Below, one piece after another: positions 22,601-61,100 of a stretch of 64,000 nucleotides of DNA; position 1 is the first letter of the stretch; every line of letters starts with the position of its first letter. Origin of the DNA: Leptogorgia sarmentosa. Taxonomy: Eukaryota. The stretch lies in assembly GCA_964658305.1 (NCBI GenBank), contig OZ210885.1, positions 2,728,001-2,792,000 on the forward strand, given 5' to 3'. Both the position numbers and the translations under genes were made by a program. The notes beneath the pieces are model-generated. The model was given only the letters and a program-made list of their open reading frames with translations. It had not been told where the DNA came from and did not search any database.

Positions 22601-25600
22601 TTACATAATATATAATAGTAGCTAAATTATAAAACTTTACCGGGTTCGATATTTTCCCAATGTATCGTTAGACATTCATCACGATCTGAGCGAGACTGTT
22701 CGTGCCAAAATCCCAAAGCATGGCCTAAAATACATTTTAAAGAAACAATTGAGCAAAAAGAACAGAAAGTTTGGAGAATTAATCACAGTTGCCTAACAGG
22801 TTAAATAAGTAAAATATATTTTAGCGCCACAAGACCGCAGCGTAAGACTTTCACAGGGAAGGTGAGCATCACCTTTACTGTAGTTCAAATATGCGACAGA
22901 CTGATAAAAATACCATTTCTTTTTTCATAGAAACTTAGAAGGTAGAAATAGAAAGAGGCTGCTAATCATGATCATGCGTGTTACTGTATTCAGAAAATTC
23001 ATTATATTCATTACTGATTTCCACATTATGATGTATATTTAGTAAACTGTGAAGTTTGGTTGCAAAATATCGTAAAATGTGGAAACTACATAATATTATG
23101 CAGTCATGTAAGCCCAGGTTGCAAAATTCCAAATTAAACTATTATTAAATTTTGGTTCCTTTTTCCAGGTGTGATAATGATATGACTGGTAATTAATATA
23201 ATTCCGAATTCAAAAGTTTGTCTAACTGTGCAATGGTCCGTTGATTTGATCGTAAATAAATGGACAACATTTTACGAACCGATTTCGTGAACAATAATTC
23301 CATGTTGCATACATCCTGGGTCAAGAGAAATCTCTTGCCGACGATTTTGGAAACCAACATATGACCGGCACCTGAATTGATATATAACAATCCTCGATTA
23401 GATCTTTGTTGTTCTTTATACGGTCGTTAATATTTGTTCTCTAATATTGATATGTGCTCTACGTACGCTTGCCATGACCTAACAGCGGAACTCACCCCAA
23501 TCCCGTAACAAAGACAATACATGCTTCGCAGCTGCTCAAACTTCGCAATTGTACGAAACGTAAACACGGAACCTTATCCATCCACTCTTCTGTTGCGTTA
23601 TAGATTAGTTGGTGATCTTTTGACGATGGAATCTCTGCATGAAAATGTAAGTATATATAAAAATTAAAATTTAGAACGCAAAATAGAAATCAAAATGACA
23701 ATTAAATCTACAAATCTTTAAAAAAAATCAAGAAGTAATAATGACATTCAAAGACTTAAATGTCTTCACAACTGTTCCCAGATTCTTAAAAACAAACAAA
23801 TATTAATGTAGTTCTAGGGCGATTATGAGAGACAGTATGTCTATACGGTATTGCTATTGCATATATACCACTGATTTGATTGATGAATTGTCTCGTGATA
23901 TCGAATAGAAAGTTCCATTTTTTGAATGTCGGCTCTCGTCTCGTTGAATAGAATATTCCATCGTTCACCTCATGAAAGTAATCTTACCATTGCACTCACA
24001 AACATTCATTATTTGTATACGTCACTTTAAAAAATGGCAGCTCTGAGTGCTTTAACGTGTTTCGGAAAAGGCGACAATCCATCACCAAAAGTGGGTTTCT
24101 CGCTAGACGGATTCTCTTATGGGTTTTTTTGGGTGACAAACTCTGGAAATATATCATTAAATTTCGAAAGTGATGAATTCCCTGCATTTTGAGGAATGCA
24201 TTCCACGGTTCCACCAGATTCAACGCCATTCCCTTTGGGATATCAAAAGCGCTTGATAAGGATGTCTTTGAATTTATTAGGAAAATTTTGTGTGGTGTAG
24301 AACGAATTTGGCTGATTTTCAGCTTCAATGTAATAGCTGATAAATGTATTAATCACAATTAACGTAGAGAACAGCTATGGAAACATACACTACCATTCAC
24401 GTGATCGATATTTTATATATTTATACAGTATATTTGCACTGGACAACCTTCATATCCATTCAAACTTCCTATCTTGATACAACCATTACCACAATGCAGC
24501 GCGATCGACTTTTTTACTGTGATGGACTTGACCCTATAGCTGTGCAAATAAATTTTATTCAAATTTAGAAGATGGCTTACGTGACGAGATGTAATAAGGT
24601 ATTTCGTGTTTGCCATTCTTTTCAGGCCAAATATCGCCTTTGTAGTTTGAGGCCGCCCCACGTTTCCGATTTTCAATCATTTCTTTCGACGATTTTGTCA
24701 AGATGATGTCTCCCTCAAAATATCCTTTCTTATTTCCTGAAAAATGTTTTTTTATTGTTGAGCGCTTGTCAACATAATGAGGACTCATACAAAGCCGGTT
24801 TTCCACTTGCGAATTTTGTCGCGAGAATCGGATTTTTTCGTGGCAAAATAGTTCGCGCGAATAACTCTTTGTTTCGACTTTGAAGTCTACGTACGTCGCG
24901 ACTTTTTTCGCCATGAAAAAGAGCGAACGGGTAGAAATCATTCGAACTCCTTTTTTTACCGTAGCGAACGATTCGAGAATTTTATCGCGATATAACATTT
25001 ATGAACACGCATGCGCGAGAGGGAAAAAATCGCTTCGCGCGACAAAATTCACAAGTGGAAAATCGGCTTAACAGTCCCCTGCATTTCAATATTTCGTGCG
25101 AAAAAAACCGGGTTTAGCCATAGGGAACCCAAATAGTTACGCACGTCAGGTTAATTCCGCGCGAGTTCAGATGCGTGACATTCTCGCTTGTTCGGAAAAC
25201 AAAGAATGATTTGTTTTGACTGTGTTTACATTGCGTGAAAAGATTGGGGCCGATACTGCATATTTTGACTTAAAATTTCCGGCCGGAAGTAGCCTTCCAG
25301 TTTTATTTAGTTCAATGGCGGAGTCCAAAGTTGCTCGATTTGGCGGCCAGCAGAAAAAATTTTTGGGATCACTTCGCGGCTTGGTTACTAAGCATTCATT
25401 TCATTTACATTACGTATTGCAAAATTTTATTCATATAAAAGGTTTTTACCGCCAAATTTGTCGAGCTTCGTTAACTCAGACGATATGGTCACGACTCGCC
25501 AGTAGCGACCCTGCAGGTTGATAATATAAACATTTAATAGATGATTAAATGTTTATAATCATCAATTATGTTTGCAGGCAGAGCGCCAGAGCTGGAAATA

Positions 25601-28600
25601 CAGGGTGTCTCAAAAAAAAGGTAATCGAACTTTGGCATGCCATTGTGCGTTAATTACTGGGTGTACGAACGTGATTTTTGCATGGTCATAAAGATCAAGG
25701 TCTTAGCAGTTGAATGACATATTTCTTGTACGATATGGAAGAAAATCAGGCAAATGCGAGCGTGTTGAAAAATCTCGGTGAAAAACGCATTCTTTCACCT
25801 CTGTGCCTAATTAAAGCAGTGCATAACAAAAGAAAAATGCAATTCATATCACGAATGTGTCATGGTAACAAAGATTTTATCAGGATTATTAGTAATTATG
25901 CATAATCAGGTCGATTGTTGAAGGGAAGGTCGTCATCTTCGAGTCCCAGAGGGAGTTAATTTTGAATAAGTTTAGCTGCAATTCTCAGAGGTGAAAGAAT
26001 GCGTTTTTCACCGAGATTTTTCAACACGCTCGCATTTGCCTGATTTTCTTCCATATCGTACAACAAATATGTCATTCAACTGCTAAGACCTTGATCTTTA
26101 TGACCATGCAAAAATCACGTTCGTACACCCAGTAATTAACGCACAATGGCATGCCAAAGTTCGATTACCTTTTTTTTGAGACACCCTGTAGTACCGTCAC
26201 GTACCTTTTCATCGATGCAATGTCACCCATTTGAGAATTTTGTTATGTCAGGATACATTATTAAATTGTTCGAACGTATTTATATCTTTAGCGTAAACTA
26301 CTAAAATTCGCTGAAAATTTAGAAAGGAAACATCGATAGAACCAATGCGAAAAGTTCGTACGCGCCAGCGCAGAATTCAGTCAGCAACATACTTTGACCC
26401 TACCGCGCATGCGATAAGATTCCAAGAATCTTGGAATGTTCAACGTATTTTACCAGGGTCACTTCTCCTCGCCACGGCCAGGACCACAGTGACCCTGGGG
26501 CCGAGGTTGCCCCTCATAGTCGTCCTGCGGCATTGTCTTTGATTTCGAGATATCATCCATAACTACCTGATTTCTGCTCGACCTTCTCGTTTACTGCCAG
26601 GAGCTTGTCAAATGCTGAGTTGTCTTCTGAATTTTCGTCAAAATTTTCTATGGTAAAATGAATTTTAAAGTGAATTTTAAATCAAACCTAATCCAACAAT
26701 AAGGAAGATGTAATTTCATTACATGTTACATCTTCCATCGTCCTATTAAGAGAAAAACTATATGCCAACTAGGAAAACAGTATATGCGTTTATACTAAAC
26801 AGATTATTTCAAAATCATGATAAAATCGCTGCATTTCACTTACCATTTTCAACATTTTCATAAATTTCTGACATGGGGAAGCCTAAAATCGGGAAGATTA
26901 CAAAATTATCGCGTCTTCTGTCCTCAATTATGCAAACAATATACTGTTACACATTAAAATTCAGAGCACACGTTACTTGAAAATGTGCTTTTATAAGCGC
27001 ATGCATTTTCTGGAAAACTTGCCAAACAATTATTGTATAATAGTTTAATGTGGGCGTAGGCAGAACGTGATAATCGGTATTTTGCCGTTGTAAACAGAGT
27101 AACGACGTCGTATAAAACTGCCGCGGTATTTCAATCGCCAAAGCTGCTCATTTTCTTTCATTGATATGATATAAATAACTGACCAAGTTTCATCTTCATC
27201 TTGCTTATTAAAGTTCTTAATGAGTGTTTTTCTTTACTTACACTTATTAAAAAAGAGTGTTCTATATTTTACACTAAACAGGTGTTTATTTACACTCTCA
27301 CAGTTTACATAATTATTATGTTACCTCCCCCCATGCATTTGTGTACGTTTACACCAAAATAAGTGTCAGCAAGGTATTTTCATACTTTACACTAAAGCAA
27401 TGTTATTTCTACACTACACATTGGAGGCGATGTTGCGATGTTTTTGCTGATGTAAAATGTTAACGATTTTCGTTGAAACGTTAACGGCAAAACAAACGGT
27501 AAACGAACGGATAGCAAACGCTTTGTATAAACGTTTCAACGATCTTTCAAAACGTTCGAACGATATCGGCAAAAAAATTTAACGGAAAATCCCAAAAATT
27601 TTAACGGTTTGAAAAACGTTTTCGTGAAGCCGTTCAAACTATATATTTTGAAACGTTTATCGACACAGTCGAACGCTTTTTTTTGTGTGCAAGCGTTAAA
27701 AACTTAAGAATTGCAAATGGCAACATCATTGCCACAAAATTTAGCTTTATAACTCCAATCTGAGACAGAAGCTATATGTGTAGGATATACATATGCTACA
27801 ACGCGGCATTAATCATATACTCGCGAATTTATATCGAAAATGTATATTGATTTTTGTGTTTATAAGCTAAATACAAGGTCTGTGATATACGAAACCCATA
27901 CAATGTGTTTGTTACCAGACACGCCGTGGTTGGTTCAAAAACAGTTTCAGACCAATATAAAATTGAGTAAAAATCAATGAAACAATTAAGGCGCCGCGAG
28001 CATATAATCATACAAATAAAAATGTTGATCACATTAATGACCGCAATAAAATCAAGTCCGAATTTGAAACATGCAAGATGGTGATCATCATGTGTATATG
28101 ATCGAGTAAGCACCGTGTATTATGATTAAAGCACCGCGTATAATTATGTAAGCACAGAATAAAATAACATTTGATCACTTAAGACAGCTATGGCTTTCCA
28201 AAGTTGTTGCATGAATATTTTGGTCATTATACTATACGGATTGTTCGGCGTTGACATATTTTGTACAAACCCAACTATAATTGAACTCGGTTATCTCGAA
28301 TCTTGCGTTATCTCGCGAACTGAAAGCCAGTTCCGTTGAAACTCATAGTACATTTATATCAACCCTCACTATGTCGAACTCCCGCTATCTCCAATAAATT
28401 TTTGTTGCCCTTGAGAGTTCGAGATAGCGGGATTATACTGTATATGCATACAGAACTTAATATAGGTTGATATGCCAACACCAAGCAAAATTAAAACTTC
28501 GTTGCAGTGAAATATCTGTGTTAATTAAGAAGACCAGTGCTGACATCTATAGAGCAGATCTAATTAGCTCTTACTAATATGTAGTGATGTAGCAGAAAGG

Positions 28601-30485
28601 CAATGAGATACAACGCAAATATCTACAAATTTGGCAAAAGGCGCGTATCTTTTATTTGAATTTCATGAAAGACAGTAAAAGGTATAGGGGTTTTTAGCCT
28701 TCGACCTTTGCATTTGAAAAACAAGCCAGAGGCTCTTCGCTGTATATAAACACGAAATGTTAGAATTTTCGAATGAGATACTATCAAACCTAAATGGTGT
28801 AGTTTTACCTGAAAGAAGAGAAATCACCTATTTCATACATACTTCACCAGATGCCACGATATAGCTACGATTCACAATCGCTGTTTTCCGTGCTTTGTCA
28901 GACGTATAAATCGGGCCTCAGAGAATGAATGATTCCGGTAGGTTATATAACTGTATCCGACGTGTTATGCGACGCGCATGCATGACTGAGAAATCATGAC
29001 TTACTCAGGTAATAATATTTTTTATATACCTTCTGTCCACTATCAAAATAAACTGTTTTTAAATATCGTGTACATGCAATCAAATTCATCACATTGTAAT
29101 CATCCTTAACTTAAATATCTACACAGTGGGTAAACTTGGTGACTAGAAAGCCACATAATTATTTCCACACATATTATAGCGACATACTATTTTATACATG
29201 CAAGGTGACACATATTCTGGAAAGATCCAACAAGTCGCTCATTTACAAGTTTGTATCACCGCGCTGGTCAGCCGTTGAACAAAGACCTCAACGGGTAGTA
29301 CCCAATATTTCTCAATTGAGAACACGGGTAATGCCTACGCTGGACTATCGCCTAAGATTGATGGTCGGCGTTTCAGTATTACTCTTGATATAGTTATATT
29401 AGTGTTAGATATAAACCATTTTTCTATATACTAAGAGTTTCCTTAATCCCAACCCAAACCCTAGAATCCTAACCCTGACGATTGTGGTCGGAAAAATATT
29501 GAGGAAAAAAATGTTTTAATCACTAACGCTGAGAAAATGTGTCGAACTGGGGCTTGAACTATAGAACTGCAACGCACGCACCGCGCCCCTTACCACTTGA
29601 GCTAAATCGAGCTCGCTGCTCACCACTCTGGCTTAGCTAAATGCATATGAGTATAAACCCGGGCAATCACTGTTCATTAATTACCAGGCCAGGCTACTTA
29701 GACGATAGTCCAGCGTGGGCATTACCCATGTTCTCAATTGAGAAATATCGGGTACTATCCGTTGAGGTCTTTGTTTAACGGGTGCGCTGGTAGCTTGAGC
29801 GCAGATACATGTACATTTTGTGTACTTTTGATGTTGTCACAACCCTGCCAGATTTTCAGTATGCAGGGTAATTTTAAATCCCTCATCAGAGACACTTGTC
29901 ATTAGAATCGTTTCAGATTAAATACATCTACGAACGAACACATCAATAAAGTAACTTTACATGTAAGTCGCATGCAATAAACTGCAAGATATAAATATTT
30001 GGATCTGAGATCTCTGGCTTGTCCTCGCAAGCAAATTCCATAGATAAAAAATTCTCAGTTGGAATAGTCTGTAAAGTGTGTTGCCTGTAAACATAAATTT
30101 TGGGAATATAGGGCTCAGTTCATTCCACATTAAGAATCTCGCGAAACCTAAACCGCTTTTAAGATTTTTCATCCGCTTAAAAATTGTCGGAAACTTTTGG
30201 GACGCAGAAACCTATGATATATGAACATACAAAAGAACGGACGGCTTGCCGTTTAATTAGATCTCTACAGGCTATACCTGTCAAAGAAAGGGGCCCCAAT
30301 CAGTTGCCAAAATCGGCCCGACCGCAAATCACTGTTTGTAGCTAAACGTATGGCTTTCAGCAAGCTATAACATTTTGCCAATTTCGAAAGCTACGCTAAA
30401 TTATTTTCAAAAGTTCTATCTTACCTTCACTGCCGGGCAAAAACCCAAGACAGAATAACAGAAGTAAGATTGATGCAAACTTCAT
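19693..30485 (-). CDS. Astacin-family (M12A) zinc metalloprotease A with Gly/Thr linker and C-terminal ShKT/PLAC-like domain, 342 aa, 8 exons
   Basis: Exons 30485-30425, 26647-26567, 24736-24581, 23634-23496, 23371-23280, 22724-22641, 21843-21556 and 19820-19693; all GT-AG and phase-consistent, 1029 nt in total. Signal [20 protein letters not shown]; propeptide FEGDI and RKR|GAA cleavage site; zinc motif [19 protein letters not shown]; Met-turn SLMQY; tail [38 protein letters not shown]. Confidence 0.9.
21556..21632 (-). repeat. Coding hexamer repeat encoding a (GT)n Gly/Thr linker
   Basis: GGC ACA/GGG ACT units encode [27 protein letters not shown]; the paralog at 38.9 kb has only GSTGGTG. 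Confidence 0.85.
25601..26188. mobile_element. Tc1/mariner-type MITE in astacin A intron 2
   Basis: TA-CAGGGTGTCTCAAAAAAAAGG...CCTTTTTTTTGAGACACCCTG-TA with near-perfect ~200-bp TIRs, suggesting a recent insertion. Confidence 0.88.
28277..28443. mobile_element. Degenerate Tc1/pogo-like MITE
   Basis: tataattgaactcggttatctcgaa...ttcgagatagcgggattatactgta, an imperfect TIR pair ending in ACTG-TA. Confidence 0.45.
29269..29784. mobile_element. MITE with ~80-bp TIRs, CA...TG ends and 7-bp TSD (P-superfamily-like), astacin A intron 1
   Basis: TSD cgctggt (29262-29268, 29785-29791); TIR cagccgttgaacaaagacctcaacggg.../...ccgttgaggtctttgtttaacgggtg. Same family as 44417-44931. Confidence 0.82.
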
Positions 30486-30551
30486 GACCACAGCGATCCT
30501 TCGTACTTCACTTCCAAAGCGATTTGAACTTTTCAGTCTTTCTTTGCCCGA

Positions 30552-30558
30552 TTTTATA
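30552..30558 (-). promoter_or_regulatory. TATA box of astacin A
   Basis: TATAAAA about 70 bp upstream of the ATG at 30485; position conserved among the copies. Confidence 0.55.
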
Positions 30559-31321
30559 TTCTTCCTTTGTTTACCTTTTTATCATTTTGTGATAAACAGG
30601 AACATTTTATCCCTGCATGTTGTCCTGACAGTTTAATCAGTGTGGTAGATTTATCAAATAAACACTTAGCTACACTTATTTAAGTACACTTACTCCATAG
30701 CAAAGATTCTTTGCACACATTATTTTTTTGTGTTTGACTTGGCTATTGTCAACGAGATGATTGCGATAAAGCTATGACACATTAAAATAAATTTTAAAGA
30801 TAAAACAAAATTGCACAATAGCTACTTTTATTCTTTTATTGCTTTAAGCGGTGTGTAAAAGCTTTACAAACTTAGGGGGTCGTCTCGCACGAAAGATCGA
30901 AATCTATACCTGCGTAATTACAAAAAGATATCGTTAAAGAATCTTAATAATAGTTGAAACTAAAATTCTAATTATCTTGGACAGTTCAACTTTCAAGAGT
31001 ATTAGGTAGGAACATCGTATCTTATTGTGAATTCAGATAATGAGTAACACATTAGCTACTTGTTGGTGCCCAATTACGATAAGCTAGATCACGATTTTCT
31101 AAGGAGTTGAAGGACTTGCGTCGTTAATGAGATAAAATTTACATTTGCATCCCATAGAAGACCGGAAACAATCTTTCTCTGTTTGCTTCTTTATCACCTC
31201 TGCATGTACAAAAGATAAAAAGTTTTCTCTGTATCCTTTCGCCAGTCACGAAAATATATAGATATATACATATATATAAAGCGTGTGAAAGCTTTCTGAA
31301 CTTTAGAGGTTTAAAATAGCA

Positions 31322-33757: not shown

Positions 33758-36483
33758 CATCTTTCTACAATTTACCCATTTCTAACATTCAAAAACGACT
33801 ATGGTTCAAGAAGAAAGACAACACCGTGATTTCAGCGTGAAAGCAACTCATAATTAACTTGTTCTTGAAATCGATTGAAACAGCTCGAAGATGGCCGAGA
33901 TATACCTCAAAATATGCTTTGAATTTCGCCCGAAAAGAGCTATTTTATCATTTCTTACTGTTGTCTAATGTATAAGCCATGAATATTTTCAATCAAAAAA
34001 CGGGTGAATGATGTCTTTCTGAGCAAATCGCCTGCAATATTTGTAAACGTTATGCATCGTTAGCTAGATTTTGTAAAAATTGAAACAGACACTTTTCCTT
34101 AAGAGGCAGATTTCGGGAAGTAATTTATCGGTTTTATCATTCGGTTATTCATGTAATTCTTGTCTCACATTTTCACTCAAAATATTTCCAAGTGAACGTA
34201 CGTTGAGCGCATGCGTGTTCGTTATTTTTCGGCATGCAGTTTATCAGATAAAAAAGTACATTAGCTCTCCATGGCAAAGAATTTCTCTTCAATCGCATAA
34301 AAATCAGGAACATTTTAATCTGAACTTTTTGCGTTACTGTTTTAGTGATGAAGACGGGAAGACAGATTAATCAGCGTGGTAGATTTAGCTATCAGATAAA
34401 CACCTATACTTGTATTATAGCAAAGATTCTTTGCACACATTAATTTTTTGTGCTTGACTTGGCTATTGTCAACGAGATGATGGCGATAAAGCTATGACAC
34501 ACTAAAACAGATTTTAAAGATAAAACAAGATTGCACAATATTCTTATTCTTTCATTGCTATAAATATGGGTGTTGTAAAAGCTTTACAAACTTAGGGGGT
34601 CGTCTCGCACGAAAGATCGAAATCTATACCTGCGTAATTACGCAGGTATACAATACGTAATAAAGCGTGTGAAAGCTTTATGAACTTTAGAAGGTTTAAA
34701 ATAGTTATTGTTATTGCTTCAGGACATTTTTAAAATACATGCTTTTAATTACGATTTTAAACACGATAATTTGAATTAAAATATTTCGCAACAATCTATT
34801 TTTAAATTTCAATTATTTATTTCAGGCGTTATTATTTCACCCACCTGCATATTATATGGTAATTCCATAAAGATTGTTATACGATTTTTTTCACTAGTGA
34901 AAATTTATCTTATGAGCATTTTGCTTGATTGACACTTTCTTGTCTCCACCTGTTCGCAAGGTAGCTGCTAGTTTAAACATGGAGTCTGTCTTTGCGAACT
35001 GATTTAATTGGGGAAGAGATTTATGAAATTTCATTAATAAATCAGGGGTATATGGGGGCCTCCCTTTTCTGGTCAACTTCGGGGGATTGAGCCCGCATTT
35101 AGCAAGCGTTGTTGCTATGATAGGTCAAACCCACAATAGCATGATGAGATAAGTAACAAGTAAGTAAAATTGGAAGGAAATCCATATTCGTGCTGCGAGA
35201 TTTGAGCTAGCAGGGCAAAGCCAGTGGAGATGTAGCGTATGTAAACGGTTCACATTTTCTCCAGGTAAGATCCAGGCCAGGTACGGGAAAAAAATCACTG
35301 TGGTGTAAACGCGGCTATTGAAACGCTTCCACATGCAAACAATCACAATTACTCTTTCAAAACATCTCTTCCACCACGCACCCTAACATTTATTTGCCTC
35401 AAGCAACATTGGCAATACATTGAAAACTATCCAGTTGTAACACAAATATGGCCAAATCAACCACAAAAATAGGCACGCACGATGCGTGCATGCGTCTACG
35501 TTGATGTCTTCCATTTGAAACTCGCCGTATGATCAGTATAATACAATCTGAAAATATGTGACGCATTTGAACTTCGTAGCTTTGAACTTCGTTTTAACAC
35601 GATTCCAGTAAGATTCGATGTTTTGTGTGTGGACGCCTGTTAATTTGAATTTGTTTCGAAAATGGAATGTTAAAAAATAAAAATGTCACAGTTAATCCAC
35701 AACACAATAAATTATTTCAATGTCTTTCAAACAATAACAATATATAGGTGTGAGTAGAACGCGCTTTGTCAAAACTCTACACTAAATTTTGTTTTAAAAC
35801 CCTTGTATCGCATCAACAACCATGAAAGAAAATACTTCCGATTCCTCAACACACAGTAGTGACAGTACATGAAAACCCCGTTTAGAAATCGCTTTACAAA
35901 GCTTGGAAATTAGACCTTCGAACGAACAACGTTAGAACAACGCACACGGCACACTTGCGATTTGCGAAACACGCCACAGTAAATCGCATACGTCACGAGT
36001 TAATTTGCTGAAAGTTCGATACATCATCGGTAGAGATAACAACGTTTGAGTGTTAGTGTTTACCTTGAGAGCTCGTGACGTCAAAATACGTCATATTCGT
36101 GGGACAAACACAGTCTGTCTGCCTGCCAGAAATTTTACGCTTACATAGCCTCTACGTTGCTTAGCAACGTAGACGCAAAAATGACACAATCAAGTGTTCC
36201 GTTCACCATCACTGACAAAATGAGCTGAGGTGTCACGTGATTATTTTGATCAGGTATAAGAAATGTTTGTATAAAGGGACAGGCAGAAGCTAAATGGTTG
36301 GATTTTTTTCCATTAATATTTTTCCTGCAAAGAGTTGATTTCTTAGATTAAATACCAAAAATAGTGGTATGAGTGGTTCTTAAACTGCAAAAAACTGATT
36401 TTATTTGGAGCTTTGTTATTGAACAAGACGCTGTATGAGCATTAAACTGTAGCCAGTAAGGTAACGAAATTCATAGTCATTAA

Positions 36484-37523
36484 AGGTGGGTTACAGTCCC
36501 TTCTGCGCATGTGCGCTGAGTTTGTTATGAGTAGGCTACTCATGTTACAATCATAACAAGTTCCCAGTCCTACAGAGTAATAACAACACGCGCGGCCGCC
36601 TAATGTTTTCGCTGTCGTGGGCTGCAAGGAGCGATGGCTGATCCAGGCGCGTCGGGTTCCGCAGAAAAACCCTTCAAATACTAAGCGCAAGAAAAGAGAC
36701 GCAACTAAGATATTTTTATTCGAAGCTTTCGAGAGGTGGAGAGCGTTCAAACAAGAACGCAACGTGAAGACTGACCAGAATGTGGCAGATTTTCTGCTCG
36801 ATAATTACGCACGGAGAAACACGTTATGGTGAGTGTGTTGATAATATAACTAAACCTTTGACCTTTTATGATGATTTTACGCTTTAATAATGTACTTCCC
36901 TTTACATATTTTATATGTATTCGGTGTGGAATCCAGTCGTTTCGCCCCCAAGTCGATTCGCCCCAAGTCGTTTCGCCCCCAAGTCATTACATGTCAATTT
37001 GTATTTGTAAGAATACCCCAAAACTTATTCAATATTCGTTAAAGCTTTTTAGCAAAATATATGAATTACGAATAGGGGTTGATTGTTCTTGTGAAGACAA
37101 AGGCCAAAAGCGTAAAATCATCATAAAAGGTCGAAGGTTTAGTTATATTATCAACACGCTCACCATAACGTGTTTCTCCGTCCGTATTAAATGATCGAGC
37201 AGAAAATCTGCCACATTCTGGTCAGTCTTCAGGCTGTGTTCTTGTTTGAACGCTCTCCACCGCCCGAAAGATGCGTCTCTTTTCTTGTCATATACCTTTC
37301 TAGCGTCAGATATGCAACGACGCTTAGTATTTGAAGGTTTTTTGCGGAACTTGACGCGCCTGGATCAGCCATCGCTCCTGGCAGCCCACGACAGCGAAAA
37401 CATTTAGGCGGCCGCGCGTGTTGTTATTACTCTGTAGGACTGGGAACTTGTTATGATTGTAACATGAGTAGCCTACTCATAACAAACTCAGCGCACATGC
37501 GCAGAAGGGACTGTAACCCACCT
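36484..37523. mobile_element. Kolobok-like non-autonomous DNA transposon
   Basis: TTAA-AGGTGGGTTACAGTCCC...GGGACTGTAACCCACCT-TTAA: TTAA TSD, RR...YY ends and long (~300 bp) TIRs. Confidence 0.8.
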
Positions 37524-37618
37524 TTAACTTTAAAATCTTCTTGTCCTATAGTGTCTATGTTATATACTGGTGTTTCGTTAAATCAAGCAGTAGAACGAAT
37601 TTCACATAAGAATTGAAG

Positions 37619-37624
37619 TTTATT
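37619..37624 (-). terminator. Probable polyadenylation signal of astacin B
   Basis: AATAAA on the minus strand about 290 bp after the stop codon, inside a block conserved with the peroxidase 3' end (50485-50490). Confidence 0.5.
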
Positions 37625-37911
37625 GAATACTAAATGAATACACAAAATACATCAATTATAATATGATTGAGGACGTTTACTATATGTAGTTATAAGCATG
37701 CATCTTATTTACTTTTCACATTTAATTACTTTATATGTATCTTATTCAAATTAAAAATTATTATATTGAATGCAATAGGGCCTAAACAATGAACGACATT
37801 CTGCTTGTCATATTATTATTAAGTTTCTAGTTTTATCCAGTTTTAATATTAGCTATGTTTAAAATAATAATGACCAAATTAGAAAACAAAAAGTACAGTA
37901 AAGTTTTTAAC

Positions 37912-45257
<7,346 letters not shown>

Positions 45258-45580
45258 AATTTATTTTATTAGCAGTGATCTTTCGCGCTTTCCTTCCAAA
45301 ACGATTTAAACTTTTCAGCGTTGTCTGCCCTTCTTATACTCTTTCTTTCTTTGCTTTCTTGGCAGTTTTTCAAAAGGACGAGCAGTTTTTCTGCATGTTT
45401 TCCGGCAAAGCAGAACTTACTTCAAGTCACGATTTTTGGTGCATGATTAGGCGGCCTCTTAAGCGGCCAACGTCAATACTTGACTTGCAATTCTATAAAA
45501 AATCCTTTCTCTCTTTCATGTTTAGAAATTCAAACAAACTTGATCTACGATACAAAGGGGCATGAATCAGAATTATTTCC
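45258..45580 (-). promoter_or_regulatory. 5'UTR and promoter of astacin B
   Basis: TATAAGA at 45332-45338. Blocks cagtttttctgcatgttttccggca, aaagc.gaacttactt and gcatgaatcagaatt are shared with the peroxidase promoter at 56524-56815. Confidence 0.6.
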
Positions 45581-50240: not shown

Positions 50241-50484
50241 AATATGTCCCCTCATCGTTCACGATCACTGATATAACGAACTGAGTTGTATAAAGGGATT
50301 GGCAGAACCTATACAGGAGGTGGATTTGCTTTTTTCTATTAGTATTTTTCCAGCAAAGACTTGATTCGTTGGATTAAAGCAAGGTTATGTATGAGTGGTT
50401 CAAACTATCAAACTATATTCTATTTGGTGCCTTTAGTGTTTCGTTAAATTAAACAGTAGAACGAATTCCAGATATAAATTGAAT

Positions 50485-50490
50485 TTTATT
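50485..50490 (-). terminator. Probable polyadenylation signal of the peroxidase
   Basis: AATAAA on the minus strand in a block homologous to the astacin B 3' end. Confidence 0.5.
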
Positions 50491-50902
50491 GAATACTAAT
50501 AAAATGAACATACAAAAAATCAATTATAACATGAAAGACGATTACTTAACAATTATAAAGGGGAGCTTCTTATTCTCATTTCCCAACCCAAATTTTGACT
50601 AAATGCCAGTATCCCAGAGAACATGAATGATGCTATCATCTCCGTGGCTGTCCCGCTCAACTCTCATTCCCATTTTCTATTTTTTTTTTTTGCTGATGAA
50701 TCCATGTCCCAGTGCATGAAATTCCATTTTCCCAGCCAAAAATGAGCAAATCTCTGTTCCCCTTTTACCCCCTTCAGGACCTTATATTTACGTTTCACAT
50801 TATTCAAATTAAACATTACATTGTGAACCACATGCAATAGGACTTCAATACGACATTATGCTTGTAATATTAACACCTAGTTTCTACTTTTCAAAGACGT
50901 TA

Positions 50903-53900
50903 CTACTGTTCCTGGAAATACGACGTTTTTAGCGCCCGTATTGTCTTCAATTGGTGAATTTTTTGCATTGATTATAAGCGATGATCGGAACTGTAGGGCC
51001 GCATTGATTGTACGACTTGGAAGAACACTAATAAAGAAATACAAACCATAAATTATAATCAAACATGTATATTCTTTCAGTAGACGACTCCGGCATTCAG
51101 CTTTACGTCTATGCCGACTGGGTTTCACGATCATTATGTAAAATATTGTTTTCAATACACGAAGATTAAATACATTATCTTCGCACCGCCGTGTAATATC
51201 CGCCATATATTTCGGCTCAAAACCGGTGCAAACCACAGTAAGTGATACAGAAATATTTACAAAATTTTCTATAGCTTTATTTTTTCTAGCTTTTTTATCA
51301 CAGCCATATTTTCCGTATTTGACAGCGAAAAAACCGGATGTGAAATCGTCCATTGTGACACGTGAAAGTTATACAGCTATTATTACGGCGAGAGTTCTAC
51401 CAATTCACGAACCACGAACTACTTGTTCGTTAAACCACTATAGTTAACTCGATATCTTAATATAATATGCCTACGGCAATTCATACTTACTTCTCGTCCT
51501 CCGCAAACATAACAGCCCTTGCATTTCCCTTTTTGGCAGACTCCATCGCATTTACAGCTTCGGGAGCAACGTTTCCCATTGACAATTCCTCTCACACAAC
51601 CTGAGCAAGCACCTTTTAACAACAAAAGTTATATTGTAACACTGGATGAAAAAACACAAACTATATTGAGGTTAGGGGAAGGGGTTAGGATTATTCTTCA
51701 CGCCTGCGCATATGGAAAAACGATACGCAGTAGACCTTTTAAAAAAGTTAATGTTACCAAGCCCTGGACGGACAAAATCCTGTATTGAACCGACAAGAGT
51801 ATTTAAAAATGTCACATACCTGCTGATGCTCCAGCACCTGTCGATCCTCCACTTCTCCATTTCCTCAGATCGATGCTGGGTATTTTTTCGCAAACTACTC
51901 GGTTGTACACCGTGCCAGCCTGGAAAGAATTCCTTTGCACCGAGACGATATTCGCTAAATTATCACACAAGATCCTTGACATTGACGCTTTTTTAATTTC
52001 GGCCAACTGTTCATCTGAAAAAACACCCGGTTTCTCGTAGAAAAACCTGTCGCCATCTCGTACACGCCTCGCTTGTTCGCGAATAATACACCCAAATGTT
52101 GCTCCAACGATCCCACCTGGAGCTGGTGCTTCTGCCAAACCTGCAACCCATAAATCAGCCAAGTTTGGATCATCATTATATAACTGAGAAAGCAGTTTCC
52201 TGTTTTTGGAAACCACGATTTCTTTCGATGTATCTCTGAAGGATGTTGCATTCTTCAAACCGCATCGCACCCTAAACGCGTTATAACCAGGTAAGCCATG
52301 ATCTCTGCCTCGCTGGATATTCAGTGCCGCCAGGTTTAAACCAGGAGATTTTGGACGTTCAAATAAGTTATTTAATAATCCATCCGCTAGCTGACGGTCG
52401 ACCGTTTGAGACTGGTTTCCAAGTAAACCCAATAGTAATGGTTCTACGCCAAACTTGTTGATGAAAGTGTTGTTGAAAAATAATTGACGTAAAGGTAAAG
52501 GATCTCCTGTTGGGTTGAAACCTTTATCCAATCGATCAAATGTTGGTCGGATCAAGCTGTGTCCAAATCTAAATGCAGCTGTAGAAAAGGAATTAAGAAT
52601 ACTGGGGTTGACTTTATCATCATAATTCTCATAGTCTGGGAGAGTGTTGCCAATGATGATTGGTAGAAAATCTTTATATGCGATTTTCTGTAGAACAGCT
52701 CCAACGATTTTTCTTGTTTCCTGGAAGGTCGTCTCACTGTCCCATTGTCGGTTAAGCTGCTGTAGTTTTCGTGCAATTCTATTGTGTTCTCGGAGAAACA
52801 AGGTGTGCATACAAGTAAGAGACATCTGTTCGTTGGTTCGGACATCACCAGATAAGAAGCAATCAGGTTGGCAGAAACTGTCTGGAGCCATGAGTCTACT
52901 GTCATCTTCAGGAAGGAATTCTCCATTGATTCCCGTTGTTGTCTTCAGCAATGCTCTATCTAGATATGATGGAAAAGACTGTTGTTGTATTTCTGCACTA
53001 CTTCATGTAGACGAACGGTCATTGTTTACCATCGTGTATAGGGGACAAAGAGTCATAAATTATATGATTTGCGTCTCTTGTCGTGTCTTGAAGTTGCGAA
53101 ATTTTTTTTGTGAAAATGAATATGCCTCTCTGCAAAGGAGCTCAAATATTGATTTGTTTTACAACGATTATAGTTAGCGTACTTACTTTTCGGATCTCTT
53201 AATTCATTTGCCAACTCTTCGGTAGATCCATAAATTTGTGAGCCATCAACAAACGCCGTGTTCACGTTTATTTGCTGTTTCACTGTTATTTCGTTTGCTT
53301 TGTTAATAATACATTCACTTGTTGATCTCGCGAAACGAATAGATCTCGAATTTCCACGTGGTAGGATTGTGTAGCAAGGTACACGAAAATCTTCCTTTGA
53401 TCCATCGCCCCTTCAAAAAGGAAATCAATTAGTTAAGACATTTTGTCACTGAGTGAACGATCTAGTCACGGTGATTCGATGCAGAAGTATTTACTTTGTC
53501 AATGAGATTAACTACCCCCTTCCATGCTACGCACGACTCCGAATCTAGGTGTAGCTATATAGTTTCCTTCTTCCAATCAGATGGGGAATGACAATAATAC
53601 GGTCGGCGTCCGTCAATTGAATACGCCCTCCTCTTCCATACAACCGAATTTTAATACCCAAATAAACCTAATATATGTAATAGACAAACTCCCCAATTGG
53701 CAATGCTTTTGCTTTGTGGTTTTAGTGGTATCACTGATATTCAAGATAACGGGCCTGAATGAAAATATTTTTAGATGCCCAGTAAAGATTTCCCTTTCCT
53801 TAAATTGAAGTAAATCATTTCCGAAGAAACCTGAAACCCTACATTCAAGTTTACCGTAAATCGTTATCGCAACGCAAGACGCAAATGTCATTGATTATGT

Positions 53901-56523
53901 GTTTCAGTCAAACGTGTTCAATTATATTTAAAGTTGGCTGAAAAGTGGATAAAAAAAATTTAAGGTTAACGATCGCTCACGTACTTTGCTTCCATGCAGC
54001 TGTCAGAATTCTCGCTTTCAGGAGAGAGACCAAAATCGTGGTCCAAAAATTGTCCAAATTGCATGACCAAATGAGAAAACCTCCAAATGGGCATCTGAGG
54101 TTTCTTCTGTTGTGCGATAAACTCTTCAACCACTTCAAATGTTGCTGGAATATCAGGGACATTATTTTGACCTGGAAATCCAATGGGATCTTTGAATCCG
54201 TCGGGATCGAAATATCTTGCAGGTAACCAACGATTGAGTCCTCTAGGCGCCGACCCCAACAAAGGATTCTTGAGGTTATTACACGTTCCATCGATTGTTC
54301 TATATTGGTCATTGCTGGGACATCTTGGAGTAGGTTTTCTATTACATTGCGCAGCGTTGGACAATTGTTGTAAAGCTTGTGTTGAAAATAATGTATTTAG
54401 TCTCCAACGAAACACAACTTGCTCGTCTAAAGAGGAAAAAGAGTACAGTTCTTAAAACCTTTTGTAGACCTGATATCTGACTGGATGATATATTACTATA
54501 TAGTTAGGTGTAGAATTCAACATAATATTCTGTCGGTCCATACAACCACACAATATTTCAAACATATCAGCCAATAAAATTATTCTATTTTCTATTCACT
54601 ACTCGTGTTATACCATCAGCTAAATTTGAAGAATTTAGTGTGGCTATGTCAGAGATTTGGGAATTTGGGATATGTGTAATCCAGCTCAGTTATGTGGGCA
54701 GATGAATGCAAGGAACGTAGTCGGTAGTAAAGATCATAAACTTCGTATTGTCTGGTTACACAGCTTCATAAGTCAAATGTGACAAACAAGTCTATGAACT
54801 ATTGACTACAAGCAAACTAGACTTCTAACATAACAACTATTTGCATAGAGGTACACATTTAGTTGATAGAACGACAAGATTGAGTTATTGATCCGCAGCT
54901 TAAGCTAAACACCTTGGATACAATCGGCCCCTAACGTTTGAAATAATCACCTGAATTCGAAGGATTTGTAGTGAATCTATCCTTAATTGTCTTTACTGCT
55001 TCTTGCAATGCGGCGTCAACTCTTGCAGACGCCATCATTTCATTAAATGCTTCCGGATTTTTCTCTTTTTCTACCATCCTCATCATCCTGTGCAAAGAAC
55101 CTGCCATCCCTCTTCCGGTGTTGTACTTTTCGTTTTCTTTTACCAATCTTCCCAATTTACGAATGGACGAACTCAAAAACGAGTCCCCAAACTTTCCAGG
55201 CAAAACAATTAGATTAACCGTTACAAAATCGTAACTTATCGCCGAATACCCACATTTAGTTGAGACTCGTACATGTAATCTTAGCTTATTTAAATTGTGG
55301 TATCGTATCCACAGTTTAAGTTTTATCTCTCCTGTATTACGATCAACACTCAGTTCTTTCCATTTAACGTTCCATAGCTTCTGACATATAAATATCGATG
55401 TACAATGGGTGTTCGGAGTGTCGATCCTTCCAAGCGTGCCAGGCTTCACATCTGGTGTCGCCAAAAACGTAAGGATAGTTCTCTTTCCTACAGTAAACAA
55501 GCGATGAGGAAAAGTCAGTATAGATAAAATCATATATATTAAAGGAACCTTGAAGAGATGAAGAGGGTAATGATAACAGAACTGCATACGTTAATTAATG
55601 CAGAAATCGCATTTCTGAGATTAATTATAATATTTAAGGAATCGAAAACATTTTCCATGTTTACATCGACTTATGTAAACACGAGTGCAAGTTTGGAAGA
55701 ACGAGAAATGTGTGGAAACACAAGCCCGAAGGGCGAGTGCGGGAAATAGCTGTGTTTACATAATCTCACTTCAGCACGGCTGTTAGCCAATCACGCGCAC
55801 GCGATCTTTTTCACTTACTTCCGGTTATTTTATAAAACAGAATTGAATCGTAGCTTGCTTAACGGTGTACACAGACAAACACAATATGTCTGCCTAATTA
55901 CATAAATCCTGCAGTCATGGACCAGTAAACGAGCTACTGTGGACGTTCCTTACTGCTATTATACAAGAATAAGTTACTTTTCTGGTCTGATTTTGCTCCA
56001 CATAATACGTTAATTCGAAACTTCAAGCATGATTAAGACACCTGAAAACTTGTTGCTACCTGGTGCCTATATAATTATCTAATATATGTAAATAGTCACT
56101 TAAAAGGAGTTTTATTTTGGACGTGGAATTAATGGAGATGATGCAACTGAAATTTTACCCAAAAAAATCTGCGTTCGCAGACGCGAATACAATACAGGAT
56201 ATTGGGAATGCCGGAATGGTGATATTGCGCGCTATTGAAATTGAATAACAGAACATTCCACTTTGTTGAAAATTACAGCAGTTCAACCAGCGTATTGAGA
56301 TGTATACTGAACTGATATAGCTATTCCGGCAGAGGAATTCTGAAACTTTGAATTTACTCTCATGCGCAAAATTGCAATGAAAATTGTTTGAAATATGTTT
56401 GAAAAACAATGAAATATGTTTTACTAAAACTGTCGCCAAAGAAATTATTATCATATTAATACCTTTACTACTGGACAAAGACCCAAGACAGAGCAACAGA
56501 ATTGAGAGTGATACAAACTTCAT
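50903..56523 (-). CDS. Secreted animal heme peroxidase (peroxidase-cyclooxygenase superfamily, MPO/LPO/peroxidasin-like) with N-terminal cadherin-like segment and basic Cys-rich C-terminus, ~844 aa
   Basis: Exons 56523-56463, 55487-54951, 54426-53985, 53410-53187, 52959-51820, 51612-51491 and, tentatively, 50911-50903; phases are consistent. Motifs YRTIDGTCNNL, QFGQFLDHD (distal His and ester Asp), TAFVDGSQIYG (Ca site), GDVRTNEQ (distal Arg and ester Glu), FRFGHS (proximal His) and NIQRGRDHGLPGY. Confidence 0.9.
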
Positions 56524-56815
56524 GACCACAGTGATCGTTCGCGCTTTGCTTCAAAAGCAATCTCCGAAGTTTTTCTTTGCGCTATTTTATACTGATCCTA
56601 TTTTATATGTACAAAGACGGATGAAAGACCAGACAGTTTTTCTGCATGTTTTCCGGCAGAAAGACAAAGCGGAACTTACTTGAGGGGACGATCCATTGTA
56701 ATTAGGAGACAGCTTAATAGATGTGGATAATTAATTTGCATTCGAGCTGTAAGAATCTTTGTTAATGATTCGTTTTCCAGTTTGAAGTATAATATAGGAG
56801 CATGAATCAGAATTG
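56524..56815 (-). promoter_or_regulatory. Proximal 5'UTR and promoter of the peroxidase (astacin-B-like)
   Basis: TATAAAA at 56585-56591; several blocks are shared with 45258-45580. Confidence 0.6.
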
Positions 56816-58085
56816 TTGAAAGTGAGAATTTGTTTACATTTTAAATAAATAAATGTGTCTTCAGTGATTTAAGAGGGCTAGATTAGTCAATTGAATGAGT
56901 GATTTAACTTTTAAGAACTAGATGATGTTATACCTGCGGTTACGTAGTTAATTCCAATCAGAAATATAGCATCGTTCACAACAGCATTTTAATTGCCCTA
57001 GATAATTTTCTTTCATCTATGTAGACAGGTTGTATCATGCAAAAAGGTAATTTACGTTACCCATCACCTAGGCTTTGAAGGTTATTTCTATAACTTTTTC
57101 TGAATTATTCGTCCCATGAGGTCTTCTTTTCTTTTTAGAGCATTCAATAAGCTATCAGAACATCTATTTGAAAGGATCGACTTTGTTTTACACACCCTTT
57201 ATTTGCGATGATTTACATGATAATCTGAGTGCCTACTTTGGCTAAACAAAGCCTCCTTCACACCCCATTTTCACGGCAACGGAACCACCCGATATCAAAC
57301 CGAAATGTTTCAAAACGAAACTCTTACATTTTTGATGATAATATTGCAGAATTTAACAAATTTTGATTTGTACTTCAACATAAAGAGATGGTGATGTTCT
57401 CGTGTATATATATTTTCAGAGTCCGAGCCACAAGATCCGCCCAATGTTTTAGAATCTTAATCTTAAACGTTTCCTGCGCATATTAGTATGCAGTTGACTG
57501 TGTGATGTTTCAAAACCGGAATTATGTCTGAGGAAGTTGATGCCACAGCCAGAATTGAACGGGCATGGTGGTAATTGTAGAACAAAAATAGGCCTACGTT
57601 GTAATACTCACATGCAGCACACATGCAGGAACCTCAATGAAAACCTAGATGTATACAGGTTACTTTGTTGCGGAGTTATTACCAACACAATGGTGTTACA
57701 ATGACTGGTCATTAACCTATGATTATACCTCTCCGCAGCGGACTTTTCAGTCGCATAAAATCAAATGTTGATGTAAATAAGGATATGGCGGAAAATGCCA
57801 AATTTGTCAAATCTTATCATGTTACTACTGTGCGTTACTAACTGCAGCTAGAGTAATTCTTGCTATAAGACTTCGCGATTCAGTTTCGCTCTCGAGTTTG
57901 CTGACGTATGATAACCTATCCCGTTATCAGTAGCTTAGCTTATGTTCAAAATTTATTTACGTGGAAATAGTCAACACTGGATTTAGAGTTGCATTTATAT
58001 AAGAGTTGAATTTAATCCCTTGTCTTAACAAGTTAGCTAATGTTTCACCAAAACTGATTGCAAAGTAATTTGATTCAATACATAC

Positions 58086-58146
58086 CTTCACTGCCGGGCA
58101 AAAACCCAACACAAAATAACAGAATTAGAAGCGATGAGATCTTCAT
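58086..58146 (-). CDS. Additional signal-peptide exon (alternative first exon of the peroxidase, or relic of another cassette)
   Basis: MKISSLLILLFCVGFLPGSE(G)|gtatg, 61 nt, phase 1. Its last 28 nt differ at one position from astacin A exon 1. It has its own TATAAAA at 58212-58218. Confidence 0.7.
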
Positions 58147-61100
58147 GGTTGCACTGATGATCCTTCGTACTTTGATTCAAAACTGATTTGAACTCTGTAG
58201 GTTTTGCGCGATTTTATACCCTTTCGCGCCTTCACTTCCTTATCACTTTTCGGTAAGGATTCGGTGAGTTTTTCCTGTTTCGATTCGCTCCAATTAACTC
58301 GATAGGAAGCGGTGGGTGTGTTGGGAACACAACAAACCGAACAAACCTACATCAACGTTGCAGCGCAAAGAATCTTTACTCTTCAGTTTATTTTCGTATC
58401 GACCTCCTGCATTGCCCACATGATACAAAGCTAATTACATAGGACAGCCTCACGCCTACAGTAGTTTAACACATGTGCCAAACCTAAAGTTAATGAGGCG
58501 ATTTCTTTTTCGAGCCTATTTGCAATAAACTAAACTAAACTATATAAACAGAATCGACGTTTTGAGCTAACGCCCCACACATGCATTTGCATCTTTAAGG
58601 CCCACATAGACCGGACGCTATTCGGCAACTCGACGCAATTTTTCATTTTTTACAGGCCATCATAATATTGTCCTTGATGCAATATTTCCCAATAATTTTT
58701 TGCGGCAAAACACTTTAAGTCATTAGGTTCGCATGGCTTCCAAAATTTACTTTCTCGCACAGTTCTCTGTACTTTCAAAAACTGAAAAATCCCGTCGTGT
58801 TACCGAAGACTTTAGGTGGGGGTAGAACTGTTCCTGTTTGATGTTGTTATCCGCTTTCTACACTGCATGGTCACATATTATGAAATATGAACGTGCAGTT
58901 CCGCGTTGAATCTGGGTTCAATCGTTGACTTAAAAATGCTAGCTATATAATTATAACGCAGCAAAGAAAACGGTAACTTTTGTTTTTACACAGGGTAACT
59001 TCAGAAATGCAAAAACTGAAACACTGGCATCAATGATAACTCTGAAAAGATGAACTTTACTGAATTTTATTCAAAGTTATTTTTAGGACTCGCCGTATTT
59101 GGGGACACTTGGCGAGTATCCTGGCAACCACATTGTAAATATTCCTTTTAGTGTAGTAATTGTTGAGCATTATTATAATTATCATTAAATCAAAAAAACT
59201 TCTAGGCAAAATAATGAAATGTGCAAATCTTCATACACATGCACATTTAGGAGAAATACAACGTTAACTTCATAGTTTAATGATTCTTCGCGCTTTGTCT
59301 AAAACTTGATTCCAACTGTATAGTATTTCATCTTCGTATTATTTTGTACTCCCTTCTTTAATATTAATTCCTTGTCGGTATTTTACAAAAATTAAATACA
59401 TTTTTCTTGTTTCCGACAACTTGGTATTTTTACTCACATAGGCCTTTCTGTAGTTGCGACGTCGAACTTTTCATGTCGCAAAGCAAAAGCTCGAACAAGG
59501 AACTTAGGTCCTTAGGGTTCGGCACATCAAAAGCCCGACGTCTTAACTATAGGGTTCATATCCATATTATGTAATCGGTGTGGACTTTCGCCAAAAAAGG
59601 TACTTTCATGTCAGGAGAAAGAATGTTTGTTTAGGCCTAAGTTAGTCCTTGAGTTCGGAAATGTCTTGAAGCCTTTTGTAGATGATATTATAAAACAGTC
59701 TGCATGATATGTGATATTGCATGGTGCATGAATCAAAACGGTTTTATTAAGTATAAAGCCGCAAATAGTACAGAATTTAAAGTTGTACGTCATTTCTTCA
59801 CACATTTTCTGATTTTTTCGTACATTTTGACGCTATTCCTTAACGCTACCGAGGTTGGGTTGCAGTCACTATGGCATTGAAATTAGAATTTTAATTCTCT
59901 TAGTATAGCTATACATATATATAAATTTATATAATAATACATATCCGCAAGGAAGTTGGGAGGGAATAATTTAAGAATGTTGAAAAAAAGCAAAGCTCAT
60001 ACTGTACTGTGTACTGACCTTACATTTTATGGGTTCAAAGCTTAATAATGGGAGCACAAGTTCAAACCTCATAGTGGAATATTGCGAGTACTTCTGAATA
60101 AATTGTTCTCGTAAGGAGACATCAGTCTACCATGTCTCTAACAGTTTCTTATCATTCCTAAAATAATTGAATGTTGCTCTCCTTTATGGTTTGCACGTTT
60201 AGAGTAAGGTTTTAGGTTCAGAGTTTAAAGTCTTCAAATAAAGGACTCGCGCGCGCCTTTTGTGATTTAACTCAATTATACATACTAGCTAAAACAAATA
60301 CCGGCATCAGGATGCATGCATGGTGTATAGTTAAGTATTCTTATAATAAAGTTGCATTATTTTTCAGTTGAAAGTAATATTAGCCTTTTTACCAAATGTG
60401 GCCTTAAAACGTTGTGTGTTAATTTTGGGATGAACAAAACCTTGCCAACCTTTTGTGCCAAACTTCTCAAATCAAAACTACTATATATGTATATATTATC
60501 TCATTTGAGTGTGTTTACCTGGGCTTATTGATAAGGAGGAACTGAATTTGAAGCGTGGGTTTGACAAATTCACCCGAAATGGGCAGTTCGAGTTTTAGTT
60601 TATAAATGCAAGGAATAATGGGAAGTATTAGCCATCATGTGATTATGATATCATTATAATATAATGCCTTGTTTCCATCTCCCTTGCGAGCACAACTATT
60701 GCGCAAGTACAACTATATTGCCTGTTGGTGCAATAAAAATATACCAATATATACCAATCCACAAAGCCAGTACCTATTTTGAGGTTTACACAACTAAGTT
60801 TCAATTGATATAATATCCCTACTAATATTAATTTTCCAGCAGATGTCTTAATTCATAAAGGTCGGATAGGAAGAAAATAGAGGGTGGGGTACACTTGTTT
60901 TTTTTTATATATATTGGATTGTTTGAAAGTTTGAACTTAATAGAGGAAATGCGCGCATATACTCGTCTGTTCAACAGAAAATTAGATATAGCTGTATATG
61001 CGTGGTCCTTGCTCCAATACCAGGTTTCGGTTCCTGTATAATTAATTATATAACTATTGCTGTGCCGCTGTATCACGTTTATACTTAATAGTAGTTGCCA

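Follow-up and report, generated by a model that had tools for sequence, protein, structure and literature searches.

How can two unrelated secreted enzymes come to begin, and in one case also to end, with the same DNA? The question is raised by a stretch of 64,000 nucleotides (nt) from Leptogorgia sarmentosa (assembly GCA_964658305.1, contig OZ210885.1, positions 2,728,001 to 2,792,000; GC content 36.6%), referred to here as the window, in which a heme peroxidase gene lies beside genes for astacin metalloproteases. Every gene is on the minus strand: first the peroxidase, then astacin B, astacin A, an orphan ShK exon (D) and finally astacin C. A preliminary description of this DNA had proposed that the peroxidase is a guest in an expression cassette of the astacins, its payload having been swapped in through phase-1 exon shuffling or recombination. 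The analysis presented here bears out its central observation: the genes of these unrelated enzymes begin with a common promoter-type region and signal exon, the 3' end is also common in the case of astacin B, and transcript-like contigs show the join in spliced form. Chimeric gene ends are almost certainly shared between the peroxidase and the astacins. As to the direction, we consider it on balance probable that the astacins took the frame of the peroxidase through two separate rearrangements of the DNA, which would have brought both secreted enzymes under one secretory programme.

The shared ends of the peroxidase and astacin genes

The spliced models have open frames, that of the peroxidase encoding 868 residues (astacins A and B are given in Table 1), with 7-9 coding exons per gene and with the stop codon and the untranslated region (UTR) on the last coding exon. 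The named matches of best identity are from Dendronephthya for the peroxidase (67%) and from Paramuricea for the astacins (69-74%, over a fragment). The peroxidase has a domain and motifs of the lactoperoxidase/myeloperoxidase type (PF03098, 402 bits from exon 5 alone; cut-off 25), with heme motifs at positions 323, 459 and 551 of the model, in which we take the residues to be the distal Gln, His and Arg, the proximal His, and the heme-linking Asp and Glu. Astacins A and B have an intact HExxHxxGxxH zinc motif and the Met-turn (PF01400, 54 bits; cut-off 22.5), and the astacins carry a ShK domain.

Similarity on the 5' side was scored against 100 dinucleotide shuffles per comparison. A signal exon upstream of the peroxidase body (56523-56463) matches the first exons of astacins A, B and C with z scores of 22.0, 12.9 and 13.7, respectively, and the 400 nt upstream of it match in the same order with z scores of 12.0, 14.9 and 15.8. 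The shared first exons of the peroxidase and of astacins A-C all end at a phase-1 GT donor. This homology had been described before, as had two blocks further upstream on the astacin B side, which are found where they were reported (56692-56624 against 45433-45374, z = 18.5; 56817-56796 against 45577-45556, z = 5.7). Intron 1 of the peroxidase has no match in that of the astacins (z = -0.2 to 1.3). Eight full or relic copies of the promoter/signal unit are present in the 64 kb, three of them in front of the peroxidase; some are tandem and one is inverted.

Of 17 sequencing runs listed, none is recorded as RNA; seven were examined, all as contigs. Four of these (X8, X9, X10 and X12) were treated as RNA because they hold spliced contigs, X1 is a DNA-like run, possibly of the source sample, and X7 comes from another sample with another organism label. 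At 90% likeness the depth in X1 is 90.6 over the unit with exon 56523-56463 and 94.9 over the astacin B promoter, with neighbouring unique bins at 74-115, which speaks for single-copy DNA and not for a high-copy repeat on the 5' side.

All six junctions of the peroxidase transcript model are found in the four RNA-like runs. They do not bear out the proposal that exon 56523-56463 is the first exon of the peroxidase. In two of the four runs, X8 (depth 13.5) and X10 (6.35), both from one study, exon 2 is joined instead to the signal exon of a more distal copy, unit X. This joint (55486 to 58085) skips exon 56523-56463, and the region 56441-56707 is covered in none of the four; X9 and X12 cover neither first exon and are uninformative on the choice. 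Exon 56523-56463 may be an alternative or a decaying first exon. Unit X matches the profile of the unit with E = 4e-48, X being part of that profile. One X8 contig runs from a match to exon X into intron-1 letters of astacin C, which shows only that such a sequence is present in that bulk sample.

On the 3' side, the peroxidase and astacin B have three collinear blocks in common: one in the 3'UTR (50891-50800 against 37834-37742, z = 19.8), one that contains AATAAA in both genes, at 50490 and 37624 (50546-50436 against 37681-37570, z = 38.3) and one in the downstream flank (50433-50286 against 36414-36267, z = 42.0). Within the window the blocks occur only at these two genes. The reported match of 3'UTR, putative polyadenylation site and flank is thus upheld for astacin B but does not extend to astacin A (z = 1.5) or to exon D (z = 0.3). 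The first ~70 nt of the astacin B UTR are 74-81% identical to those of A and D, and the switch to the peroxidase type takes place within ~10 nt. The last exon, the stop codon and the first 55 nt of UTR of the peroxidase have no match in astacin B. Since the likeness starts only within the UTR, the 3' junction is to be placed there rather than at a phase-1 intron. The first block is covered in all four RNA-like runs, the contigs of which end at differing places (50528-50581) at the edge of a repeat; because they stop there, the lack of cover over 50546-50436 was not counted as evidence. The 3' blocks fall in the same depth bins as true repeats, and copy number cannot be read there.

Two further parts of the proposed cassette were not recovered. 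The GSTG linker is no more like those of the astacins in its DNA than expected by chance (z = -0.1 against B, 1.3 against A), and the linker of a related peroxidase (L001, below) differs; a derivation of the linker from the astacins was rejected. Nor is there a match between the Cys-rich exon and that of ShK (z = -0.6). With the linker and Cys exons being the peroxidase's own, and with the 3' junction inside the UTR, a single phase-1 payload swap is not supported.

The same frame is present on a second peroxidase. A scan of metagenome contigs with the exon-2 alignment reduced 98 pattern matches to two loci, of which one (L002, a 29% match) was not informative. The other, L001, has an uninterrupted frame of 887 residues with 68% identity to the window peroxidase, a synonymous divergence (dS) of 0.55 and a ratio of nonsynonymous to synonymous divergence (dN/dS) of 0.27 in the catalytic part. 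It is the sister of the window peroxidase (100/99; 9 rows), covers positions 1-530 of the 530 of PF03098 and was aligned to myeloperoxidase. Introns are absent from L001 at five of the six sites, so that it is probably derived from mRNA. With its signal, L001 reaches a score of 58 against the five of the window, compared with 18.8 +/- 3.8 (maximum 33.6) for a background of 108 signal-like N-termini. Its exon 1 has 27 nt identical to X and is preceded by the same upstream block, and the UTR motif of the first 3' block lies ~50 nt past its stop codon (56 in the window). Since L001 has this signal exon, upstream block, Cys tail and UTR motif in common with the window, the frame has been on the peroxidase since at least the split between the two. 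At the first intron site L001 has 69 extra in-frame nt; homology of these to a mini-exon of astacin A was rejected (score reached by 128 of 1000 shuffles), and their likeness to the start of the intron of X is weak (19 of 1000).

Table 1. Features of the peroxidase-astacin locus (window positions).
Feature	Position	Strand	Remarks
Copy Y, dead: promoter and start codon	59252..59413	-	ATG 59273, stop after 8 codons; nhmmer E 1.4e-5; z 11.4 against X
Unit X: promoter-type region and signal exon	58086..58293	-	TATA ~58217; signal exon coding part 58146-58086, phase-1 donor; spliced to peroxidase
Second promoter and signal exon	56463..56817	-	coding part 56523-56463; inside intron 1 of the X-started transcript; upstream blocks astacin-B-like
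Peroxidase exon 2 (phase 1-1)	54951..55487	-	cadherin-like domain and helical pro-region; several of 25 relatives end at this donor
Peroxidase exons 3-5	51820..54426	-	54426-53985, 53410-53187, 52959-51820; animal heme peroxidase domain (PF03098) and Gly/Ser linker; junctions in spliced contigs
Peroxidase exons 6-7, 12-Cys tail	50947..51612	-	51612-51491, 51027-50947; not ShK; kept in L001 (48% over 73 codons); spliced
3'UTR block 1	50800..50891	-	common to astacin B and L001 (L001 2912-2937, 92%); covered by RNA-like contigs
Interspersed repeat in peroxidase 3'UTR	50545..50790	-	matches 46480-46663; very high depth
Poly(A)-signal block and downstream flank	50256..50546	-	AATAAA 50490; shared with astacin B; fourth short block 50289-50256
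Astacin B	37912..45577	-	signal exon 45257-45188; 8 exons; 321 residues; open spliced frame; Pfam Astacin and ShK
Astacin B 3' region	36200..37911	-	astacin-type for ~70 nt past stop, peroxidase-type from 37834; split by inverted-repeat element 36480-37527
Promoter-only relic upstream of astacin A, weak	31172..31254	-	80% to the 3701-3834 relic; z 4.1 against B, 1.5 against the 56523-exon unit
Astacin A	19693..30628	-	signal exon 30485-30425; 9 exons; 355 residues; open spliced frame; 3' end unlike that of the peroxidase
Orphan ShK exon D	7768..8131	-	frameshifted; 3'UTR astacin-A-like; no upstream astacin body within the window
Promoter-only relic upstream of astacin C	3701..3834	+	B/56523-exon type, inverted; z 19.0 against B, 17.2 against the 56523-exon unit
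Astacin C, 5' part	199..1928	-	signal exon 1783-1717 and exons 2-3; leaves the window

Direction of transfer and competing histories

The history that we favour has two steps. In the first, a duplicated 5' unit of the peroxidase would have been joined to exon 2 of an astacin within intron 1; both sides being phase 1, the frame would have been kept and the astacin's own promoter and signal exon replaced. A tandem duplication of the peroxidase followed by deletion of the body of the copy is one possible route. In the second, later step, astacin B would have gained its peroxidase-type 3' end through a tandem duplication that had one end near 50891, in the 3'UTR of the peroxidase, and the other near 37835, in that of the astacin; A and D would have kept the astacin one. 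A secreted lactoperoxidase-like generator of oxidants and secreted zinc proteases might then be made by the same gland-type cells. The introns kept in both bodies, together with exon 2 boundaries that recur in relatives, indicate events at the DNA level and not retroposition; the insertion of a retrogene into a host gene was rejected because neither body has lost its introns. A recurring spacer also favours the two steps: 870 nt from upstream of astacin B recur upstream of astacin C at 78-81% identity, followed by a promoter relic of the B type.

The order of events was approached through trees and distances of the first-exon unit, calculated from 203 columns with the relics and Y left out. 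The distance from L001 to the window units is 0.49-0.65 throughout; that of X is 0.55 to L001 and 0.44-0.45 to the astacin units. The A-B distance of 0.33 is in line with a dS of 0.31-0.34 between these genes, and the 3' blocks of the peroxidase and astacin B are separated by 0.17 +/- 0.02. The best tree is (L001, X, ((56523 exon, (A, C)), B)), with inner splits of 77-80. Under a clock, 500 resamples placed the root on L001 375 times, on X 47 times, on the 56523 exon 18 times, between (L001, X) and the rest 59 times and elsewhere once. The root is thus on a peroxidase-linked exon in 440 of the 500, and in 479 of 500 when the 56523 exon is omitted.

The closest astacins outside the window were also compared. 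The search for the astacin exon gave two proteins from 84 candidates. The closest full-length relatives, P0121 and P0269, are 60-66% identical to A and B and form a 99/95 clade with them, the order inside which the tree (13 rows) leaves open; P0123 and P0124 come next. The signals of P0121, P0269, P0123 and P0124 are ordinary and unlike those of the window, ranking 77, 50, 44 and 25 of 108. The signals of P0121 and P0123 were also considered as homologs of each other, and the match was not significant.

Several observations count against a transfer from peroxidase to astacins. L001, which may or may not be an ortholog, is the only homolog recovered with a 5' end (one of the two loci). The distant peroxidases P0049, P0086 and P0101 do not have the signal, with scores of 20.2 (rank 35), 33.6 (first) and 19.8 (rank 39), and the record of the sister protein P0003 has no N-terminus. 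The spacer between B and A keeps almost nothing of that between the peroxidase and B (two short matches). The 3' distance of 0.17 comes from blocks picked for their similarity, and the A-B comparisons themselves span 0.11-0.33. The root depends on a clock and on 203 columns; four of five topologies pass the approximately unbiased (AU) test, among them a tree that separates peroxidase from astacin units (p = 0.38). Finally, gene conversion could have erased dates. The signal of P0049 had seemed alike by eye and was dropped as a candidate at its rank of 35 of 108.

Part of this evidence fits the opposite direction, in which the frame was originally that of the astacins, as the preliminary description held, and, before L001 split off, the body of the peroxidase came into a duplicated astacin locus, with later gene conversion keeping the first exons alike. 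Three astacins carry the exon, the 56523 exon groups with the astacin exons (80/77), the signal is absent from distant peroxidases, the separated topology is not rejected, and the root falls between (L001, X) and the remaining units in 59 of the 500 resamples. However, the closest full-length astacins outside the window are without the signal, the 3' blocks are absent from A and D whereas the 3' motif is present in the UTR of L001, and the linker and Cys exons do not come from astacins. With both ends of the frame on the L001 peroxidase and most roots on a peroxidase-linked exon, we regard an astacin origin as unlikely.

Slightly less probable again is a unit that came from a third secreted-protein gene, or that was a small self-duplicating unit, and was added separately to peroxidases and astacins, the shared 3' end being an unrelated local duplication. 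The number of copies, some tandem and one inverted, would suit such a unit, as would the outgroups without it on both sides, and dispersed promoter-plus-signal units have a precedent in Schistosoma (PMC3434034). Every copy, however, lies at or just upstream of the 5' end of one of these genes, at 90% likeness the units have the DNA depth of single-copy sequence, and the X-L001 divergence is like that of the peroxidase coding sequence; no terminal repeats were noticed around the copies, although none were searched for.

An artefact, whether a misassembly or a resemblance that AT-rich DNA and generic signal peptides show by chance, is hardly credible: no listed contig spans the whole stretch and reads leave the 3' junction of astacin B uncovered, but the z scores against shuffles are 12-42, the copies are 12-30% apart and so are not assembly duplicates, X7 contigs from the other sample bridge three places (50769-51992, 56161-57296 and 57576-58564) and exclude misassembly there, X8 and X10 splice X to exon 2, L001 repeats the arrangement, and unrelated signals score far lower.

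It is possible, although we hold it only tentatively, that this octocoral lineage has a reusable secretory frame, in which a repeatedly duplicating peroxidase promoter and signal exon recruited into one gland-cell programme a whole family of unrelated proteases and perhaps also enzymes from other parts of the genome. If so, the secretome of a cell type would grow by the movement of enzyme bodies behind an existing promoter and not by new regulatory sites.

Relation to known systems

The closest parallel is in the mammalian REST/WFDC/Kunitz genes (among them SEMG1/2, Svs2-6, PI3 and SPINT3-5; PMC7556508, PMC3209443), which are clustered and in which common first and last exons surround unrelated secreted products and the second exons are phase 1 (PMC3209443). 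In the composite genes Svp1/Svp5 of guinea pig and SVP200 of rabbit, splicing links a distal first exon to exon 2 of a neighbour and leaves the proximal first exon inside intron 1, as a 'pseudo-exon' in SVP200 (PMC7556508). The window resembles them in that X is spliced distally and the 56523 exon is left in intron 1, and it resembles REST genes in having a homologous promoter and signal-peptide exon before unrelated products, with a phase-1 second exon. The homologous 3' nontranslated sequence of REST genes has at most a partial counterpart here, in the peroxidase and astacin B but not in A and D.

There are also clear differences. REST genes have three exons (signal, one major coding and a separate 3' noncoding exon), and their payloads are single exons of repeats or small domains. 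Here there are 7-9 coding exons and no 3' noncoding exon, the payloads are bodies of seven and six exons encoding two unrelated enzymes, and the 3' junction lies inside the UTR, in one astacin only. By analogy, the locus would work like the REST case; it is not a member of the REST family, and homology to the mammalian genes is not claimed. In Schistosoma japonicum a unit of core promoter and signal sequence, copied by recombination at the DNA level, starts several genes (PMC3434034). That unit is found on 18 scaffolds and its products have no homologs, whereas the unit described here is local as far as is visible and stands before two old enzyme families. The mammalian REST genes already illustrate the principle; two large unrelated enzymes with a common frame were not met in the literature searched. 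Our searches, which covered few subscription papers and no supplements, returned no report of the locus or of an astacin-peroxidase frame.

In its body, the peroxidase is like the animal heme peroxidases (PF03098) of the anthozoan cadherin-bearing branch (P0003, P0049 and P0096), with the same catalytic domain, motifs, cadherin-like N-terminus and variable C-terminal modules; unlike in these, this signal exon and a 12-Cys tail are present, which were seen in the window and L001 only. The astacins are built like the cnidarian astacin-ShK metalloproteases (M12A; Hydra HAS family, PMC8191133), with a signal, a pro-region, the HExxHxxGxxH domain, a Gly/Thr linker and ShK, but differ from their closest outside relatives in having a signal exon and promoter homologous to those of a peroxidase. 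Hydra astacins originate in gland cells (PMC8191133), and in Hydractinia one astacin marks endodermal epithelium (PMC12699878). The common promoter DNA suggests that the peroxidase and the proteases may be co-secreted in gut or mucus gland cells. Domain shuffling has been described for cnidarian gland-cell trypsins, and the gain of gland-cell products has been discussed (PMC6767649). In the evolution of cnidarian cell types, how gland cells gain products is not settled, and promoter capture is directly testable at this locus. It offers a dated, inspectable example of how an enzyme can gain an expression pattern and a secretion signal in one step, with the probable donor and recipient, relic promoter copies and both junctions within 60 kb, and with an outgroup copy as well.

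Further observations on the enzymes and repeats

The cadherin-like part of peroxidase exon 2 was modelled with a predicted local distance difference test score (pLDDT) of 64; its best Foldseek matches are cadherins (E = 7e-6), and a Nematostella relative has the same N-terminal domain. In this exon, P0244 is like the window (54952-55485) in the middle and nearly identical to P0243 in the last third, so that the two are mosaic paralogs, which suggests recombination within the peroxidase family. Anthozoan proteins of the same branch (P0003, P0048, P0049, P0061, P0086 and P0096) have fibronectin type II, trypsin-like, tectonin, cadherin and WxxW partners. The 12-Cys tail matches no Pfam family. 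It is conserved (51612-50947; L001 2625-2858) with a knottin-like spacing; a family lead from the ESM Atlas was set aside, being at most a lead (best score 0.79, low recognition).

Depth over the peroxidase coding bins in X1 is 320-1000, which points to close paralogs. Between 51820 and 55100 the coding exons are at 3-10 times the depth of unique DNA, and exon 6 and the promoters are not raised. In one X8 contig a 90% match to the end of exon 5 gives way to other sequence; close paralogs seem to differ in the 3' modules that they carry. X9 has a variant joint at the exon 6-7 boundary (51027/51491) with three other letters, from an allele or a paralog.

Among the astacins, the linker of A (21556-21650) has an expanded Gly-Thr repeat and one extra Cys, and in P0121 (ENA, 718 residues) a long region of FG-GAP-like repeats separates the protease domain from the Cys-rich end. 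A 517-nt inverted-repeat element with 94% likeness between its copies lies in intron 1 of both astacin A (29269-29785) and astacin B (44416-44931), in opposite orientations. The element that splits the 3' region of astacin B (36480-37527) is noncoding, with inverted arms of ~400 nt, of which the outer 124 nt are 100% complementary, and with TTAA on both flanks; it is presumably Kolobok-like. A minus-strand reverse-transcriptase-like frame of 714 residues (9812-11953) probably belongs to a retroelement without long terminal repeats, a label given from its sequence, and the 3' end of this element recurs in the last intron of astacin B (38348-38724, 92%). Intron 1 of the peroxidase contains a short repeat of very high copy number (55630-55836, more than 1000 times the unique depth in X1), which is also present at 32563-32815 and 12799-12882.

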